Assembly: GCA_016209225.1 (NCBI GenBank)
Contig: JACQWO010000069.1
Span: 4,172 to 68,171, forward strand
Length of the DNA stretch: 64,000 bases
Direction: 5' to 3'
Origin: Desulfobacterales bacterium
Lineage (GTDB): Bacteria; Desulfobacterota; UBA8473
This document shows, piece by piece, positions 7,157 to 13,100 of the stretch. The notes beneath the pieces were generated by a model. That model did not search any database and was not told the origin of the DNA. It worked only from the letters and a program-made list of their open reading frames with translations. Made by a program: the position numbers and the translations under genes. Numbering within the stretch: position 1 is the stretch's first letter; each line of letters starts with the position of its first letter.

Positions 7157-7334
7157 GATAACAGTATATCATAGTTAAAATGCTTTTGTTTACAAGATTT
7201 TTTAGGGCTTGATTTTTTTTATAATAAAGGTATTCTATAGAAGAATCCTGTGATAAAATATCATTTTTTTGCTATCTAAAGAAAGAGCAGTATAGTTGCT
7301 ATGTGAGCCGAGGGAAGAGAGAGTTGATGTAGAT

Positions 7335-9275
7335 ATGCCTGAGAACATGAAAGACAAAACGGGAAATGTCCTGCACGGTGTGAGCCTTCTTACGGACCAC
7401 GATGTTTATCTCTTTAAAGAAGGAAACCATTTTAAACTCTACGATAAACTCGGCTCTCATCCAATGACCATCGATGGAAGGAAGGGAGTCCTCTTTGCAG
7501 TATGGGCGCCAAATGCCGAGGCGGTGTCGGTCATCGGAGATTTTAATGGATGGAAGCCGGATGTGCATCCTTTGAAGGTAAGGGAGGATAAATCGGGCAT
7601 ATGGGAAGCTTTTGTCCCTGGCATTGAAAAGGGGACTCCTTACAAATATCACATTGCCTCCAGATACAATAACTACAAGGTTGACAAAGGTGACCCCCTT
7701 GCCTTTTATTGGGAAACCCCTCCCAGAACGGCTTCAGTTGCATGGGATCTGAATTATGAATGGGGAGATGACGAATGGATGAAAAACAGGCATAAATTCA
7801 ATGCCTCTGATGCCCCCTTTGCCATATACGAAGTACATCTTGGTTCGTGGAAAAGATGCCCTGAAGAAGGAAACAGGTTTCTCACCTATAGAGAAATAGC
7901 CCATTCTTTAACAGAATACGTAAAGGAGATAGGGTTTACCCACGTTGAATTATTACCGGTTATGGAGCACCCCTTCTATGGATCATGGGGGTATCAAACT
8001 GTAGGATATTTCGCACCAACAAGCCGATATGGAACTCCCCAGGATTTTATGTATCTGATAGACTATCTCCATAAAAATGGGATTGGAGTAATATTGGATT
8101 GGGTCCCTTCCCATTTTCCAACGGATGAACACGGGCTTGCCTATTTTGACGGAACCCACCTTTATGAACATGCAGACCGAAGAAAGGGACACCATCCCGA
8201 TTGGGATACATATATCTTTAATCTGGGAAGGAACGAGGTCAAGGAATTCCTCATCAGCAGTGCTCATTTCTGGCTGGACAAATACCATGTTGACGGTTTC
8301 AGGGTAGATGCTGTAGCGTCAATGCTGTACCTTGACTATGGAAGAAATGAAGGAGAGTGGATACCTAACGAGTATGGGGGAAATGAGAGTATCAGGGCTA
8401 TAACCTTCCTGAAGAGGTTCAACGAAGCGGTCTACAGGGATTTTCCCGATGTCCAGACAATAGCGGAAGAATCTACAGCATGGCCAATGGTTTCTCAACC
8501 CACGTATGTGGGAGGTCTTGGTTTTGGAATGAAATGGAATATGGGATGGATGCATGATACCCTGGATTATTTTTCCAAAGACCCCCTTTACCGGAAGTAC
8601 CATCACAATCAGCTCACCTTCAGTATATGGTACGCATTTTCGGAAAATTTTCTCCTTCCCCTCTCACATGATGAAGTTGTCCATGGAAAGGGAGCCCTTG
8701 TTGGAAAGATGCCTGGAAATGAAGAACAAAAGTCGGCAAACCTTCGGCTCTTGTTAGGATACATGTATGGCCATCCAGGAAAGAAACTGATCTTCATGGG
8801 AGGAGAGTTTGGTCAGTGGAGAGAGTGGAATCATGACGAGAGTTTAGAATGGCATGCCCTTCAATACCCCTCTCATCAGGGAATACAGAGGTGGGTTAAA
8901 GACCTGAACCTCTTTTACAGAAACGAACCTGCTATGTATGAACTGGATTTTACGATGGAGGGTTTTGAGTGGATAGATTTTCATGACTGGGAGCATGGCA
9001 TCATAAGCTTTATAAGAAACGGTAAAGAAACCGATAGCATAATCCTTGTTGCCTGCAATTTCACACCTGTTCCACGATATAACTATAGAGTGGGAGTCCC
9101 CCGGGGTAGCTTCTGGAAAGAGGTCCTTAATAGTGATTCAGAGGTATACGGCGGAAGTGGACATGGGAACCTCGGCGGTGTTGAAGCGACGCCAGTACCA
9201 GCCCATGGAAGAGATCATTCTATTTCCATAACCTTACCCCCTTTAGGGGTTCTGTTTTTTAAGAGTGAGACGTAA
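7335..9275 (+). CDS. glgB: 1,4-alpha-glucan branching enzyme (GH13)
   Basis: [59 protein letters not shown]; ATG 7335 preferred to TTG 7296. Confidence 0.97.
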
Positions 9276-9279
9276 ATTT

Positions 9280-9591
9280 CGAGGACAGAATGTATGTAAG
9301 ACAGTAAAATGGATATTCCCATGTCCTGATAAAGAAAGGTATATAACAATAAGAACCGCTCAAAGGATATTTGACATGGCATGTAAACGAGCAGGGATAA
9401 AGAAGGGGGTGACTATCCACAGTCTTAGACATTCATTTGCAATACATCTTTTGGAAAATGGGATTGACCTGAGATACATTCAAGAGCTATTAGGGCATAA
9501 AAATTCCAAAACTACCGAAATATATACACATGTAAGCACAAAAGATTTTGCAAGGATAAAGAATCCGGTAGACCAGATATTAGATGGTTAG
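9280..9591 (+). pseudogene. C-terminal fragment of a tyrosine recombinase (XerC/D-like or integron-integrase-like); 5' boundary approximate
   Basis: KWIFP patch, [24 protein letters not shown] and IKNPVD end; N-terminal domain and first catalytic Arg absent. Confidence 0.85.
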
Positions 9592-9596
9592 CTATG

Positions 9597-9676
9597 GGAG
9601 GTATATCCGACATAGTCGTCTATACCTCCAAAACTAAACAAAAGGCGACATTGTCGTCTATGAACAAGTTATCGGC
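9597..9676 (+). other. attI-like structured recombination site
   Basis: Hairpin GGAGGTATA/TATACCTCC (9597-9605/9621-9629); 16-bp direct repeats CGACAT(A/T)GTCGTCTAT at 9608 and 9646; core GTTATCGGC at 9668-9676. Confidence 0.55.
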
Positions 9677-9724
9677 AATTCTTTGCGAGAAAAGCAAAAA
9701 CTTCTGTCTAAGGAATAATCCTGA

Positions 9725-9976
9725 ATGGTAAATTGGAACCGCTTCCTCCCGAAAGACTTTGAATATGATTTTGACCAGGATAAGCTCAGTGCTCATCGTG
9801 TCTCCTTTGAGGAAGCTGTTGAGTGTTTTTTCTCGGATTTTGAGATCCGCAGGAATAAGGCATATAAAGACAGGTACCAACTTATCGGGAAAACGATTGG
9901 AGGACGTAAACTCAAAATTGTTTTTCAACTCAAACCGGACAACGTTGTCCGCATTATAACAGGATGGGATATATGA
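9725..9976 (+). CDS. BrnT-family type II toxin
   Basis: 83 aa; FEYD...KLSAHRVSFEEAVECF...RYQLIGKT..GRKLKIVF...VRIITG pattern. Confidence 0.75.
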   Translation: MVNWNRFLPKDFEYDFDQDKLSAHRVSFEEAVECFFSDFEIRRNKAYKDRYQLIGKTIGGRKLKIVFQLKPDNVVRIITGWDI

Positions 9977-10260
9977 AATCTAAACTTAAATTCAAAACCG
10001 AAGAAGATATTGACCGTATTGTTATTACCCAAGCAGATGATGAGTCTGCGTGGGGAGTGCCTGTGAAGGTGAGCAAGTCAAAGTCAACCTCACTTGATCT
10101 TCCTTCTGATTTAGCCGCGCGGGCGGCATTTTTTGCCCGTCTACATCGAGAGGCAAGTTTAGAGAACTGGCTTAAACGGGTTATACAGGAAAGATTAGAT
10201 ATTGAAGAAGCAGCCTTTGCTGGATTTAAAAAAGAATTGGTTGCAAAGAACAGCCGATAA
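9973..10260 (+). CDS. Cognate antitoxin (BrnA/CopG-RHH-like)
   Basis: ATGA overlap with the toxin stop; acidic N-terminal half, TSLDLPSDL...LENWLKRVIQERL ribbon-helix-helix-like C-terminal half. Confidence 0.7.
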   Translation: MKSKLKFKTEEDIDRIVITQADDESAWGVPVKVSKSKSTSLDLPSDLAARAAFFARLHREASLENWLKRVIQERLDIEEAAFAGFKKELVAKNSR

Positions 10261-10322
10261 CACAGGCCAAAAGATATACATACAAATACTTCGCACTTAT
10301 TTTGGCATTGAACGTTATCTGC
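10253..10322 (+). other. attC-like site (70 bp)
   Basis: R'' GCCGATAAC (contains the antitoxin stop), inner GCCAAAA[G]ATA / TATTTTGGC arms with one unpaired base, R' GTTATCTGC. Confidence 0.7.
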
Positions 10323-10385
10323 TCAGTGCGGTCAGGGGAAAGACCATTTTTTAAAACTATTTAATAATTATCAGGAGTTAGTAAA

Positions 10386-10610
10386 ATGGAGATTGCTAAT
10401 AGAATATTAGTTGATGAGAAGATTAGATTTGGAAAGCCCGTTATAAAAGGTTCGCGGGTTCCGGTGGATTTAATAATTGGAAAATTGGCTGGTGGCACAA
10501 CCTATGATGAAGTTATGTCTGAATACGAAATAACCAGAGAAGATATCTTAGCTGTATTGGATTATGCTGCAAAACACCTTTCAGATGAAGAAGTCAGGGC
10601 TATAGTATAG
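10386..10610 (+). CDS. DUF433-family protein (putative antitoxin)
   Basis: RILVDEKIRFGKPVIKGSRVPV...YEITREDILAVLDYA; AGGAG RBS. Confidence 0.9.
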   Translation: MEIANRILVDEKIRFGKPVIKGSRVPVDLIIGKLAGGTTYDEVMSEYEITREDILAVLDYAAKHLSDEEVRAIV

Positions 10611-10611
10611 A

Positions 10612-10647
10612 ATGCCTAAATTTGCAATTATTAGAAGGAAACCATAA
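10612..10647 (+). pseudogene. Possible N-terminal stub of the DUF5615/PIN-like partner of DUF433
   Basis: ATG immediately after the DUF433 stop, reading MPKFAI.. then an early stop. Confidence 0.3.
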
Positions 10648-10670
10648 TTAGTAAGGAGTAATCCCCCATA

Positions 10671-13100
10671 ATGGATAAGTATATATGCATCCACGGACAT
10701 TTTTACCAGCCCCCAAGGGAGAACCCCTGGCTTGAAGAGGTGGAACTTCAGGATGGAGCTTATCCCTACCATGACTGGAATGAGAAAATAACCGCCCAGT
10801 GTTACAGACCTAATGCAGCTTCCCGCATCCTTGACAAGGAGGGAAGGATTGTTGATATAGTAAACAACTATTCAAAGATCAGCTTTAACCTGGGACCAAC
10901 CCTTGCCTCCTGGATGGAAAGAAACAAACCCGAAGTCTACAGGGCTATCCTCGAAGCTGATAGATTGAGCATAAAACGGTTCTCAGGACATGGTTCGGCA
11001 ATAGCCCAGGTATACAATCATATGATCATGCCCCTTGCAAACAAGAGGGACAAATGCACCCAGGCAGCATGGGGGATAAAGGACTTTCAGAAGAGGTTTA
11101 GGAGATTCCCTGAAGGAATGTGGCTCCCCGAGACTGCCGTTGATATAGAGACCCTTGAAGTGCTGGCAGAGCTTGGAATAAAGTTCACCATCCTCTCTCC
11201 AATACAGGCAAAGAGGGTAAAGAAAAAAGAGGAGAGCGAATGGCAGGATGTCAGTGGAGGAAGGGTTGACCCAACGATGCCTTATCTCTGTATCCTTCCA
11301 TCCGGAAGGGCTATAAACCTGTTTTTCTACGATGGGCCTATCTCCCGGGACATTGCCTTTGGAGAGTTGTTGAGCAGCGGAGAGGCCTTTGCCAGGAGAC
11401 TGCTCTCTGCATTTAGTGATCAAAGGGGCGGGCCACAGCTTGTACACATTGCAACGGATGGGGAGACCTATGGGCATCACCACCGCTTTGGGGATATGGC
11501 TTTAGCCTACTGTCTCTATCTTGTCGAGGCAAATAATCTTGCAAAGATAACCAACTATGGAGAGTACCTTGAAAAATACCCTCCAACCTACATTGCTGAA
11601 ATCTCAGAAAACTCATCCTGGAGCTGCTGTCACGGAATAGAAAGGTGGAGGGACAATTGCGGCTGTAACACAGGGTTGAACAAAAAATGGACACAGGCGT
11701 GGAGGAAGCCTCTAAGAGAGGCTATGGACGGGTTAAGAGACAGACTCGTACCGCTCTATAAAGAAGAGGCATCAAGGTATTTCAGTGACCCATGGAAAGT
11801 GAGGAACGATTACATCGAGGTAATACTGGACAGGTCACGGAATAATACAGAAAAATTCCTCAGAAAACACACTGTCAAAGCCCTTTCAATAGAAGAAAAG
11901 ATAAGAGTCTTAAAGCTTCTGGAGGTGCAGAGAAATGCCATGCTCATGTTTACAAGTTGCGGCTGGTTTTTCGACGATATATCCGGAATCGAGACTACCC
12001 AGGTCATGCAATATGCAGCCAGGGCTATCCAGCTTACAGAGGAACTATTTGGCATATCCGTTGAAGAAGATTACCTTTCAACCCTTGAAAAGGCTCCTGC
12101 CAATATACCGAAACTGGTAAATGGCAGAAGTATCTATGAAACCCTTGTCAAACCTGCAATGCTTGACCTCATGAGGGTTGGTGCCCATTATGCCATATCC
12201 TCCATCTTCGATGGACATTCTGAAAGCACTGCCATATACTGTTATACCGTCACTAGAGAGACATACAACCTGAGTGAGGCAGGGAGGTTGAGGCTTGCGG
12301 CAGGAAGAGTCAAGGTAGTGTCGGACATAACATGGGATCAAGAATATGTATGCTTTGCCGTGCTCCACCTGGGAGAGCATAATATCATCGGAGGGATTAG
12401 GATTAATGTAAACGATGAAGCCTTCTCAATGATGTACAAGGAATTAACAGAGGTTTTTGACAGAGGAGATATCTCCAAGGTCATAAGGGCTATGGATAAA
12501 TACTTTGGCGCGAATAACTACTCTCTTTGGCATCTCTTTAAGGATGAACAGAGAAAGGTCTTAAATCACATCCTTCGTTCAACACTGGATGAGGCAGAGG
12601 CTTCGTTCCGTCAGATATACGAGGATAATTACGGCACCATGAACTTCTTACATGAAGTCTCTTACCCCCTTCCAAGCCCACTTCTTGCGGCCACCGAGGT
12701 CATCCTGAATACTGACATAAGGAAAGTTCTTGAAGAAGAAAAACCGGATTTAGATAAACTGAAACAACTGATAAGCGCAGTAAAGAGATGGACTGTGAAT
12801 ATTGACAAACCAACCCTGAGCTTTGCTGCAAACTCTATGATCAATACCCTCAGCGAAAAGTTAAACTTGAATAGTAATGATCTGTCAATAATTGAAACCC
12901 TTGAGCATACTATAAGGCTGTTGAGGTTATTAGCACTGGAGTTAGACCTGTCTAATTCCCAGAATATCTACTTTTGCATAGGGCAGACGATCCTTTCTGA
13001 TAAGGTGAAAGAGAGAGAAGAAAGTAAAGATGAAAAGGCAGGAGAGTGGCTGGATGCTTTTTGTAAATTGGGGCATCAATTACATGTCAAGGTCTTATGA
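10671..13100 (+). CDS. GH57-family glycoside hydrolase with DUF3536 domain
   Basis: HGHFYQPPRENPW, GMWLPETAVD, ATDGETYGHH, SWSCCHGIERW, MFTSCGWFFDD. Confidence 0.92.
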   Translation: MDKYICIHGHFYQPPRENPWLEEVELQDGAYPYHDWNEKITAQCYRPNAASRILDKEGRIVDIVNNYSKISFNLGPTLASWMERNKPEVYRAILEADRLSIKRFSGHGSAIAQVYNHMIMPLANKRDKCTQAAWGIKDFQKRFRRFPEGMWLPETAVDIETLEVLAELGIKFTILSPIQAKRVKKKEESEWQDVSGGRVDPTMPYLCILPSGRAINLFFYDGPISRDIAFGELLSSGEAFARRLLSAFSDQRGGPQLVHIATDGETYGHHHRFGDMALAYCLYLVEANNLAKITNYGEYLEKYPPTYIAEISENSSWSCCHGIERWRDNCGCNTGLNKKWTQAWRKPLREAMDGLRDRLVPLYKEEASRYFSDPWKVRNDYIEVILDRSRNNTEKFLRKHTVKALSIEEKIRVLKLLEVQRNAMLMFTSCGWFFDDISGIETTQVMQYAARAIQLTEELFGISVEEDYLSTLEKAPANIPKLVNGRSIYETLVKPAMLDLMRVGAHYAISSIFDGHSESTAIYCYTVTRETYNLSEAGRLRLAAGRVKVVSDITWDQEYVCFAVLHLGEHNIIGGIRINVNDEAFSMMYKELTEVFDRGDISKVIRAMDKYFGANNYSLWHLFKDEQRKVLNHILRSTLDEAEASFRQIYEDNYGTMNFLHEVSYPLPSPLLAATEVILNTDIRKVLEEEKPDLDKLKQLISAVKRWTVNIDKPTLSFAANSMINTLSEKLNLNSNDLSIIETLEHTIRLLRLLALELDLSNSQNIYFCIGQTILSDKVKEREESKDEKAGEWLDAFCKLGHQLHVKVL

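Follow-up and report, generated by a model that had tools for sequence, protein, structure and literature searches.

In a 64,000-nucleotide stretch of the genome of a Desulfobacterales bacterium (hereafter the window), the branching-enzyme gene glgB and a GH57/DUF3536 glycoside hydrolase gene are separated by an integron-like insertion. This segment carries, all on one strand, the end of a tyrosine recombinase gene, an attI-like site, a toxin–antitoxin (TA) gene cassette, an attC-like hairpin and what is left of a second cassette (Table 1). It spans 9277-10648. The sequence between 8800 and 11400 was read together with the list of open reading frames (ORFs) and the Pfam matches; the homology with two genomes of the same genus that lack the segment, G006 and G003, continues past the glgB stop at 9275 up to position 9276. 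An earlier note, made from the letters of the window, had interpreted this segment as what remains, in decayed form, of a system that captures cassettes by means of a recombinase other than the integron integrase IntI. Every sequence element that it listed is present at its position and matches its description base for base.

The recombinase gene is reduced to its C-terminal third, the N-terminal two thirds being gone. The fragment matches only the last 77 positions of the PF00589 profile (E 3.8e-22) and is 63% identical to a full-length paralogue on contig C54 of the same genome. Judged from the catalytic columns of the family alignment, it retains the HxxR, H and Y boxes and lacks the first catalytic arginine and the lysine; it therefore cannot be active, and any movement of the BrnT cassette would need an enzyme acting in trans. 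The decay of this copy, which the earlier note had proposed, is evident both here and in the second cassette. The DUF433 unit is broken, though not through loss of an end: an internal deletion of about 330 nucleotides (nt) just past 10610 removed the partner gene, which encodes 121 residues in the related genomes G002 and G005, and no 3' attC follows.

Behind the stop codon of the recombinase, the attI-like site reads GAACAAG/TTATCGGC, the slash marking here and below the presumed crossover point, and the site ends in the window as GAACAAGTTATCGGC. It includes a palindrome of 33 nt whose 15-nt arms are 87% complementary. The cassette entry core, GTTATCGGC, occupies positions 9668-9676. At the other end of the cassette, an imperfect hairpin of about 70 nt extends from GCCGATAAC (10253-10261), which contains the TAA stop codon of the second ORF (10258-10260), to GTTATCTGC (10314-10322). 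Its boxes follow the order of an attC site, with GCCGATAAC as R'', ACA, GGCCAAAAG as L'' (10265-10273), a variable centre, TTTTGGC as L' (10300-10306), ATTGAAC and finally G/TTATCTGC as R'.

The complementarity between the entry core and the R'' box had been noted over nine bases and proved to be longer, with 17 of 19 bases pairing between 9668-9686 and 10243-10261. Taken alone this figure is only modestly unusual, because 1 of 100 mononucleotide shuffles of window 9000-11000 also reached 17/19, and the real support comes from the repetition of the pattern elsewhere. Within the cassette, the toxin half of the proposed BrnT/antitoxin pair is backed by its PF04365 domain. The antitoxin half rests on its position and on the ATGA start/stop overlap with brnT, the second ORF (95-98 residues, ending at 10260) having no match in Pfam or NCBIfam. 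As DNA, the pair is 84% identical to a BrnT/antitoxin pair at G005:C141.

Table 1. Features of the segment between glgB and the GH57 gene and of its flanks, in window coordinates
Feature	Position	Strand	Basis
glgB (1,4-alpha-glucan branching enzyme), left flank	7296-9275	+	Pfam CBM_48, Alpha-amylase, Alpha-amylase_C
Inserted segment, putative integron-like remnant	9277-10648	+	Absent in two same-genus genomes (G006, G003)
Tyrosine recombinase, C-terminal fragment	9301-9591 (listed ORF from 9265)	+	PF00589 profile positions 94-170
Palindrome GGAGGTATATCCGAC/GTCGTCTATACCTCC, first putative recombinase-binding element of the attI-like site	9597-9629	+	Inverted repeat
CGACATnGTCGTCTAT, two copies 38 nt apart	9608-9623, 9646-9661	+	Direct repeat, 94%
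Proximal attI element, simple site ...GTCGTCTATGAACAAG	9646-9668	+	Crossover predicted between G9668 and T9669
BrnT/antitoxin gene cassette, complete, 646 nt	9669-10314	+	Start is reverse complement of own R'' box, 17/19
brnT toxin gene	9725-9976	+	PF04365, E 6.6e-9, 36.4 bits against cut-off 34.5
Putative antitoxin gene, BrnA-like by position	9973-10260 (alternative start 9964)	+	ORF, ATGA overlap with brnT
attC-like site	10253-10322	+	Box architecture, nhmmer match
DUF433/DUF5615 cassette remnant	10315-10648	+	PF04255; comparison with G002 and G005
DUF433 gene, intact	10386-10610	+	PF04255, E 5e-19
GH57/DUF3536 glycoside hydrolase, right flank	10671-13100	+	Pfam

The same arrangement recurs elsewhere in this genome. 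On C54, a recombinase frame of 374 residues is followed, about 120 nt past its stop codon, by ...CTTATGAACAAG/TTATCTGC, a HicB/HicA pair and a hairpin whose left box is GCAGATAAC. An internally deleted recombinase on C16, with its attI, precedes four TA cassettes separated by hairpins of the form xxxTAAC-ACA-GGCCAAAAG...CTTTTGGCC-TTGAAC-GTTAxxx, and on C11 an attI without recombinase, located behind trpS, is followed by two cassettes; a CGACATnGTCGTCTAT-type motif pair is also found there (C11:127150-127215). All eight complete cassettes (C16 contributes four, C11 two, and C54 and the window one each) begin with the reverse complement of their own R'' over the first 8-11 bases from GTT. Such a signature is accounted for by circular permutation, because a circular cassette with a single hairpin site that recombines at G/TT would integrate in this very form. 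The contigs C54 and C16 end in the same stretch of about 170 nt; the assembly is thus collapsed at this point, and the arrays may extend further.

A profile built from seven hairpins of the genome retrieved at least 15 such sites between unrelated TA pairs, and the window site with E 1.2e-17, the profile including this site itself. A generic finder of AAC...GTT hairpins was tried and dropped, since most clusters among its 94 matches (about 30 per Mb of the 3.1-Mb genome) were spurious. The 28 sites that were aligned share TAAC, an AAA(A)G run, CAAA, CTT-CTTTT and GAAC-GTTA, together with the box architecture and the AAC and GTT ends. Because pair counting on the MAFFT alignment was equivocal through register shifts, 20 of the 28 sites were folded singly with DNA parameters, and the bottom strand was the more stable one in 18 of them. 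The typical bottom-strand fold has an outer stem of 6-7 bp, a one-sided bulge of 4 nt and an inner stem of 10-12 bp; the site of the window reaches -7.0 kcal/mol on the bottom strand and -4.6 kcal/mol on the top strand.

The recombinase platform, that is the gene with its attI, is present in multiple copies at unrelated intergenic sites (C54, C16, C48, C64, C11 and C95; C61 and C52 also gave matches). With so many scattered remnants, it looks as though the whole platform was copied or spread inside the genome. The remnants comprise internally deleted recombinases, attI sites alone and a common upstream promoter-like stretch; they are located at C48:36775-37350, C95:13740-13960, C11:127130-128230, C33:85800-87250, C61:17715-17900 and C52:1058-1109 and adjoin housekeeping genes such as the mraZ region, an hdr-like gene, trpS and leuD/leuB.

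The segment also differs between close relatives. Five states of the locus between glgB and the GH57 gene were found in six genomes of one genus, in addition to metagenome variants, as would be seen for an array of mobile cassettes that varies between strains. G006 and G003 have only a spacer, of 195 and 242 nt. G001 has the truncated recombinase, the site and the BrnT cassette (98% identity), then a DUF4258/MqsA-like cassette with its own hairpin. In G002 an ORF of 1072 residues and in G005 an ORF of 275 residues precede a hairpin and then DUF433 with its 121-residue partner, and the window itself (G000) combines the truncated recombinase, the site and the BrnT cassette with DUF433 deprived of this partner. 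The window, G002 and G005 become similar exactly past AACG, from TTATCTGCTCAGTGCGG onward (AACG/TTATCTGC). The 1072-residue ORF of G002 (L119, G002:C21 2192-5410) would form with its hairpin an unusually large cassette. On the right flank, the GH57/DUF3536 gene is present in 16 of the 21 related genomes searched.

Contigs, not reads, from four groundwater metagenome runs (X4 to X7, X4 belonging to the same study as the probable source) extend this picture. The X4 contig has the same attI, but a different cassette stands behind it. In the X5 and X7 contigs a different unit of 752 nt comes after the BrnT cassette, in place of the DUF433 stretch, which in G001 too is replaced by a unit of about 750 nt. 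On the X5 contig, the 3' half of another hairpin (...GCACTTGAAC) stands directly before 9668. A joint of 10313 to 10649 on the X6 contig was not relied on, its shorter side being 31 letters at 88% likeness. The tie between the BrnTA pair and these boundaries, which mattered to the earlier note, was retained: the pair recurs with the same boundaries.

These observations bear on a rival explanation in which the repeats are TA operators, terminators or coincidence and no mobile cassette exists. TA promoters often hold palindromes, a nine-base inverted repeat is expected by chance in 1.4 kb and the shuffles reached the value of the window once. The hairpin family nevertheless recurs at least 15 times between unrelated TA pairs, the boundary signature is present in every complete cassette of this genome and close relatives differ in their cassettes exactly at the junctions, which makes this explanation extremely improbable. 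No Rfam family matched at E <= 1 in window 9000-11000, and in the promoter and terminator scan nothing relevant to the integron-like finding exceeded shuffles.

The attI-like site is conserved well beyond this genome. It lies 45-130 nt past the stop codon of the recombinase, and variable sequence starts after its G: ...TGAACAAG/TTA is kept at C54, C16, C11 and many homologous loci while the bases past the G vary. Counterparts of the palindrome are found behind the stop codon of homologues in other phyla, in every lineage a few bases ahead of GTT and with a sequence that differs by lineage. Unoccupied sites read ...AACAAG/ATACCCAAAATG (C48 and C95), i.e. AACAAG/ATACCC, and array ends read ...AACG/ATAC (C11, C33, C55, C91 and loci L037 and L038); these are the two reciprocal products predicted by an attI x attC exchange after the G. 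As in integrons, an attI accompanies the integrase gene and insertion occurs at G/TT, but the site is located at the 3' end of the gene and not at its 5' end. In contigs of runs X5 and X6, 9614 is joined to 9653, so that exactly 38 nt, one attI repeat period, are missing. The absence of window 9615-9652 from these contigs, which come from two other studies, corresponds either to a duplication in the window or to a deletion in those contigs.

A protein search in which 8,000 candidates were scored gave at least 7,999 relatives at E <= 1e-20, and the best 120 of these are 59-84% identical and belong to many phyla. Homologues with same-strand cassettes occur in Nitrospirota, Bacillota, Bacteroidota and other phyla. 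Eighty homologous loci were fetched (L016-L095). The attC profile of the genome gave 20 matches in 11 of them, all on the strand of the recombinase and 19 of the 20 downstream, and chains of two to four cassettes could be traced in Clostridium, Natronincola and Bacteroidota loci. A first-cassette test, independent of the sequence of the hairpins, took the 11-mer starting at a GTT 20-330 nt past the gene and searched for its reverse complement, ending in AAC, within 2.5 kb; the signature was present in 24 of the 44 loci with at least 1.5 kb downstream, against 5 of 66 in the upstream control. At 31 of the 80 loci the contig ends at most 500 nt past the gene, an outcome that assembly-breaking repeats would produce. 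This suggests that arrays behind the family gene systematically break metagenome assemblies and are under-represented in metagenome-assembled genomes (MAGs). The expectation that homologues would be trailed by a site of this kind, with variable same-strand cassettes behind it, was borne out by these loci and traced arrays.

The enzyme itself departs from IntI. The full-length paralogue scores 231 bits against the TIGR02249 cut-off of 265, in two pieces that leave model positions ~181-237 unmatched. Its alignment to IntI4 (2a3v) likewise falls into two blocks, in which chain residues 174-244 stand opposite only 29 residues of the query. The KDR motif and the HxLRH motif are separated by 61-62 residues in 32 of 35 family rows, as compared with 103 residues in 17 of 20 IntI rows and 68 in the XerD-like protein of this genome. 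About 41 residues of the IntI-specific insertion, known as the IntI additional domain, are thus absent from the family. Among 32 aligned members, little or no variation is seen in the columns of the catalytic Arg, Lys, His, Arg, His and Tyr. The paralogue passes the XerA-type model NF040815, its best NCBIfam model, with 245.6 bits against a cut-off of 220, and a sequence-based annotation of the family recombinase as XerA-like stands. With the full-length model, Foldseek returned tyrosine recombinases only, XerA structures being the second-best matches.

The position of the family was assessed with a quick IQ-TREE maximum likelihood tree of 59 rows. These comprised 34 of the 80 family loci, selected by length and taxonomic spread (the other 46 being left out), P0001, the window fragment, 17 IntI loci (14 from the phylum and 3 from plasmids) and, from this genome, three IntI and three other paralogues, one of which, C63, proved to be an IntI fragment. 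A canonical IntI clade with support 99 contains IntI1, the two other plasmid IntIs, the 14 IntIs of the same phylum and those of this genome. All 36 family rows fall outside it, in three groups that are respectively Bacillota (support 96), mixed Nitrospirota-type (99) and Bacteroidota (100), and family and IntI together are split from the Xer-like rows with support 100. The window fragment is sister to L030 (support 98). The homologues are thereby neither canonical IntI nor ordinary XerD, being placed apart from the XerD-like protein of the genome. The suspicion of a non-IntI recombinase that IntI-based tools would miss was likewise supported, with the insertion absent and the TIGR02249 score below cut-off.

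The strongest rival holds that canonical IntIs serve these sites. The locus would then be an ordinary integron leftover, an attC cluster with no integron integrase (CALIN) left by the canonical IntI of the genome, and the recombinase fragment would be an unrelated Xer-like gene at a secondary insertion site. Canonical IntIs do occur in this genome. In a sample of the phylum they are present in 47 of 121 genomes overall and in 5 of the 8 that are family-positive. The crossover triplet and the ...TAAC and GTTA... ends equal those of the canonical attCs of the complete genome G056. In passages of Cury et al. 2016 (PMC4889954), IntI is distinguished by its extra domain, and recombinases that lack the IntI-specific profile near attCs "are not IntI". 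However, the junction keeps a fixed distance past the recombinase stop in at least six phyla, beside palindromes that differ by lineage. No TIGR02249 match over cut-off was found in 4 of the 5 carrier genomes tested, two of which, from Clostridium and Maribacter, are complete. In G056 the two systems occupy separate loci, one being a canonical intI whose array is divergent and the other a family gene with its own site, and their attC sequence types differ. The attC profile gave no match in the 1.5 kb on either side of 17 canonical intI loci, a weak negative given the short flanks and the narrow profile, and no array of the described hairpin type was seen beside the canonical IntI genes of this genome. 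We consider this explanation unlikely.

Less probable still is a system of the Xer/dif type, in which a single-enzyme chromosome-dimer resolvase has a dif-like site beside its gene and TA units exploit it in the manner of integrative mobile elements exploiting Xer (IMEX) or of the plasmid dif (pdif) modules of Acinetobacter. TA modules are typical pdif cargo. The NF040815 score, the missing IntI insertion and the palindromic site adjoining the gene would all fit such a system. The platform is however multi-copy and decaying at unrelated intergenic sites, where chromosome-dimer resolution would call for a housekeeping gene present once and working on a single dif site, and a separate XerD-like gene is present on C11. 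The identity of 59-84% across phyla is also unlike that of a vertically inherited housekeeping gene. Moreover, the units are bounded by direct hairpins of 70-145 nt with G/TT permutation and not by alternating dif sites of 28 bp.

In place of the IntI insertion, the family has another distinctive feature. All close homologues start with about 70 extra residues followed by a variable linker. The isolated N-terminal domain of the copy of this genome scores 26.7 bits with Pfam HARP (PF07443, cut-off 25), 24 of 31 family members match HARP at E <= 0.01 and the match within the full-length protein is below cut-off at 21.8 bits. The AlphaFold2 model of this domain (predicted local distance difference test, pLDDT, 91.5) has a beta-beta-alpha-beta-beta-alpha-beta topology. 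Compared with representative chains, it aligns first with the N-terminal domain of T4 UvsW (Z 8.2, 1.7 A over 61 residues), then with those of archaeal XPB (Z 6.5-6.7) and with SMARCAL1 HARP (Z 4.2). Foldseek with the domain placed XPB and HARP among its top seven matches, none of them at E <= 0.001. The domains of SMARCAL1, T4 UvsW and archaeal XPB are related and recognise forked or branched DNA. In this family, the HARP-like domain would supply the structure-specific DNA recognition which the I2 insertion gives in IntI. Two homologues, P0023 and P0107, have two tandem copies of the domain.

Window 9277-10648 is thus probably an inactivated copy of an integron-type platform run by a non-IntI recombinase. 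The argument is built on the architecture of the segment, its repetition, the boundary signature, the turnover at exact junctions, the missing IntI insertion and the HARP-like fold. The intact platform would comprise a tyrosine recombinase with an N-terminal HARP-like domain and without the IntI insertion. Directly past its stop codon, an attI would combine recombinase-binding palindromes with the simple site ...GAACAAG/TT. Cassettes would follow downstream on the same strand, each closed by an imperfect hairpin of 70-145 nt (attC) of the form ...TAAC-A...stem...stem...GAAC-G/TTA. They would enter and leave by site-specific recombination at G/TT, as a consequence of which the start of an integrated cassette is the reverse complement of its R''. 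Of the copy in the window, the recombinase would have lost its N-terminal two thirds and the next cassette its toxin-like partner gene, the BrnTA cassette remaining intact. The proposal of the earlier note is supported on this account, with homologues that stand apart from canonical IntI and XerD and carry downstream arrays.

From its conserved adjacency to the sites, we infer that the family recombinase, and not a canonical IntI in trans, does the reactions. It is likely that this enzyme, like IntI, binds its own attI palindromes and carries out strand exchange with hairpin attCs behind the G. That attC reacts as a folded bottom strand, with the HARP-like domain recognising its branched shape in the place of the IntI insertion, is a proposal we regard as having roughly equal chances of being right or wrong. 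Similarly balanced is our view of a wider hypothesis, according to which these recombinases would represent a second widespread integron lineage in Nitrospirota, Thermodesulfobacteriota, Bacillota, Bacteroidota, Spirochaetota and candidate phyla. The integrase of such a lineage, which would never have had the IntI insertion or would have lost it, would use a HARP-type N-terminal domain for hairpin attCs, lie upstream of and co-oriented with the array and branch beside or below canonical IntI.

Several results weigh against this interpretation. The genome encodes a full-length canonical IntI on C19 (377 bits; C19:88812-90254), which could act on the attCs in trans, and partial canonical copies at the ends of contigs C86 (54872-55540) and C13 (6755-7459). 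In the phylum sample, the share of IntI carriers given above is higher among family-positive genomes than overall. In the copy on C54, no ATG, GTG or TTG lies in frame around the N-terminus, where homologues start (C54:32554-32600), and this full-length copy may be non-functional. The first-cassette signature was missing in 20 of the 44 loci, and the opposite-strand control gave 10 of 44. The tree had few outgroups and no archaeal XerA, and the family formed one clade with a support of 9 only, so that a single clade and a family paraphyletic to IntI are not separated. The best fold match of the N-terminal domain is borderline, a Z of 8.2 being at the level that the tool calls common. On the alignment of 28 attCs, RNAalifold gave no consensus fold. 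Our own structure gave 73.8% paired cells on the MAFFT alignment and 69.1% in shuffles, and its covariation score of 0.130 was exceeded, at 0.193, when the register was slid by -1.

With canonical integrons, these platforms have in common a recombinase gene beside attI, a simple site of the L-AA-R form ...GAAC AA GTTA, cassettes that end in imperfect palindromes with ...AAC and GTT... boxes and a crossover behind the G of GTT, cassettes whose first bases complement their own R'', TA-rich arrays and the grouping of family and IntI against Xer-like rows. They differ by the lack of some 41 insertion residues, by the extra HARP-like domain, by an attI past the 3' end of the gene and by an array co-oriented with it. 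Canonical attCs carry a spacer and extrahelical bases. In contrast to these, attCs of the Nitrospirota type have a conserved internal sequence in common, and their predicted bottom-strand fold has the one-sided 4-nt bulge. The family resembles XerA and XerC/D in its Xer-like length, its NF040815 score and its structural matches; it is set apart from Xer/dif, CTX-phage, IMEX and pdif systems by its copy number, its seemingly horizontal spread, its hairpin-bounded direct cassettes and its N-terminal domain. This domain is like those of SMARCAL1, T4 UvsW and archaeal XPB, being over the Pfam HARP cut-off and aligning best with them in the model, but it is fused here to a tyrosine recombinase, and its structural scores are moderate and come from a predicted model.

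The co-orientation of gene and array that the earlier note had stressed is real, but it is not new. Passages of PMC4889954 and PMC9668308 describe the same orientation of integrase and cassettes in inverted-integrase integrons (Treponema group) and in archaeal integrons, the latter with an attI immediately downstream of intI (PMC9668308). Unlike the family, the integrases of both groups carry the IntI additional domain according to the same source (PMC9668308). Xer enzymes, for their part, can use a folded single-stranded phage site, as stated in PMC3442271. The standard tool IntegronFinder discards recombinases without the IntI-specific insertion, by the description given in PMC4889954. Integrons are reported as nearly absent from Firmicutes and rare in Bacteroidetes in sections of the IntegronFinder 2.0 paper (PMC9024848), and a passage of PMC8138268 mentions an "integron-like" recombinase subgroup whose insertion is "not fully conserved". 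No description of cassette arrays tied to an insertion-less recombinase was found in the literature, within a text search that did not cover subscription journals and supplements; supplementary figures S1 and S5 of PMC4889954, on profile-less recombinases near attCs, could bear on this.

Should the family prove to be a functional integrase, integrons have been counted incompletely, cassette-bearing homologues being present in the complete Clostridium and Maribacter genomes. The view of the insertion as essential for hairpin recombination would then need revision, and the origin of IntI from Xer-like enzymes could be tested on natural proteins. The HARP-like domain also points to another way of recognising folded DNA. 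A second integron lineage, should it exist, would explain part of the integrase-less attC clusters and the arrays in phyla deemed almost free of integrons, and would provide a natural intermediate between Xer recombinases and IntI.

Further observations concern the recombinase genes and sites of this genome. C54 holds the sole full-length family copy and has an out-of-frame ATG behind a good ribosome-binding site. Additional IntI fragments are located at C63:26812-27327 and C62:49426-49740, and the two IntI copies at contig ends are oriented with the 5' end towards the outside of the contig. In the empty attI, the right half (GATACCCAAAATG...) opens a long inverted repeat that closes with ...CATTTTGGGTATC (C95:13830-14100, C48:37210-37340 and loci L038, L017 and L142). 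Behind this repeat follows a conserved structured element of about 200 nt (GGCGGATGAGCG...CGCTCATCCGCC), which ends at another GTTA. Together, the long inverted repeat of the empty attI and this element may constitute a second, long class of recombination site.

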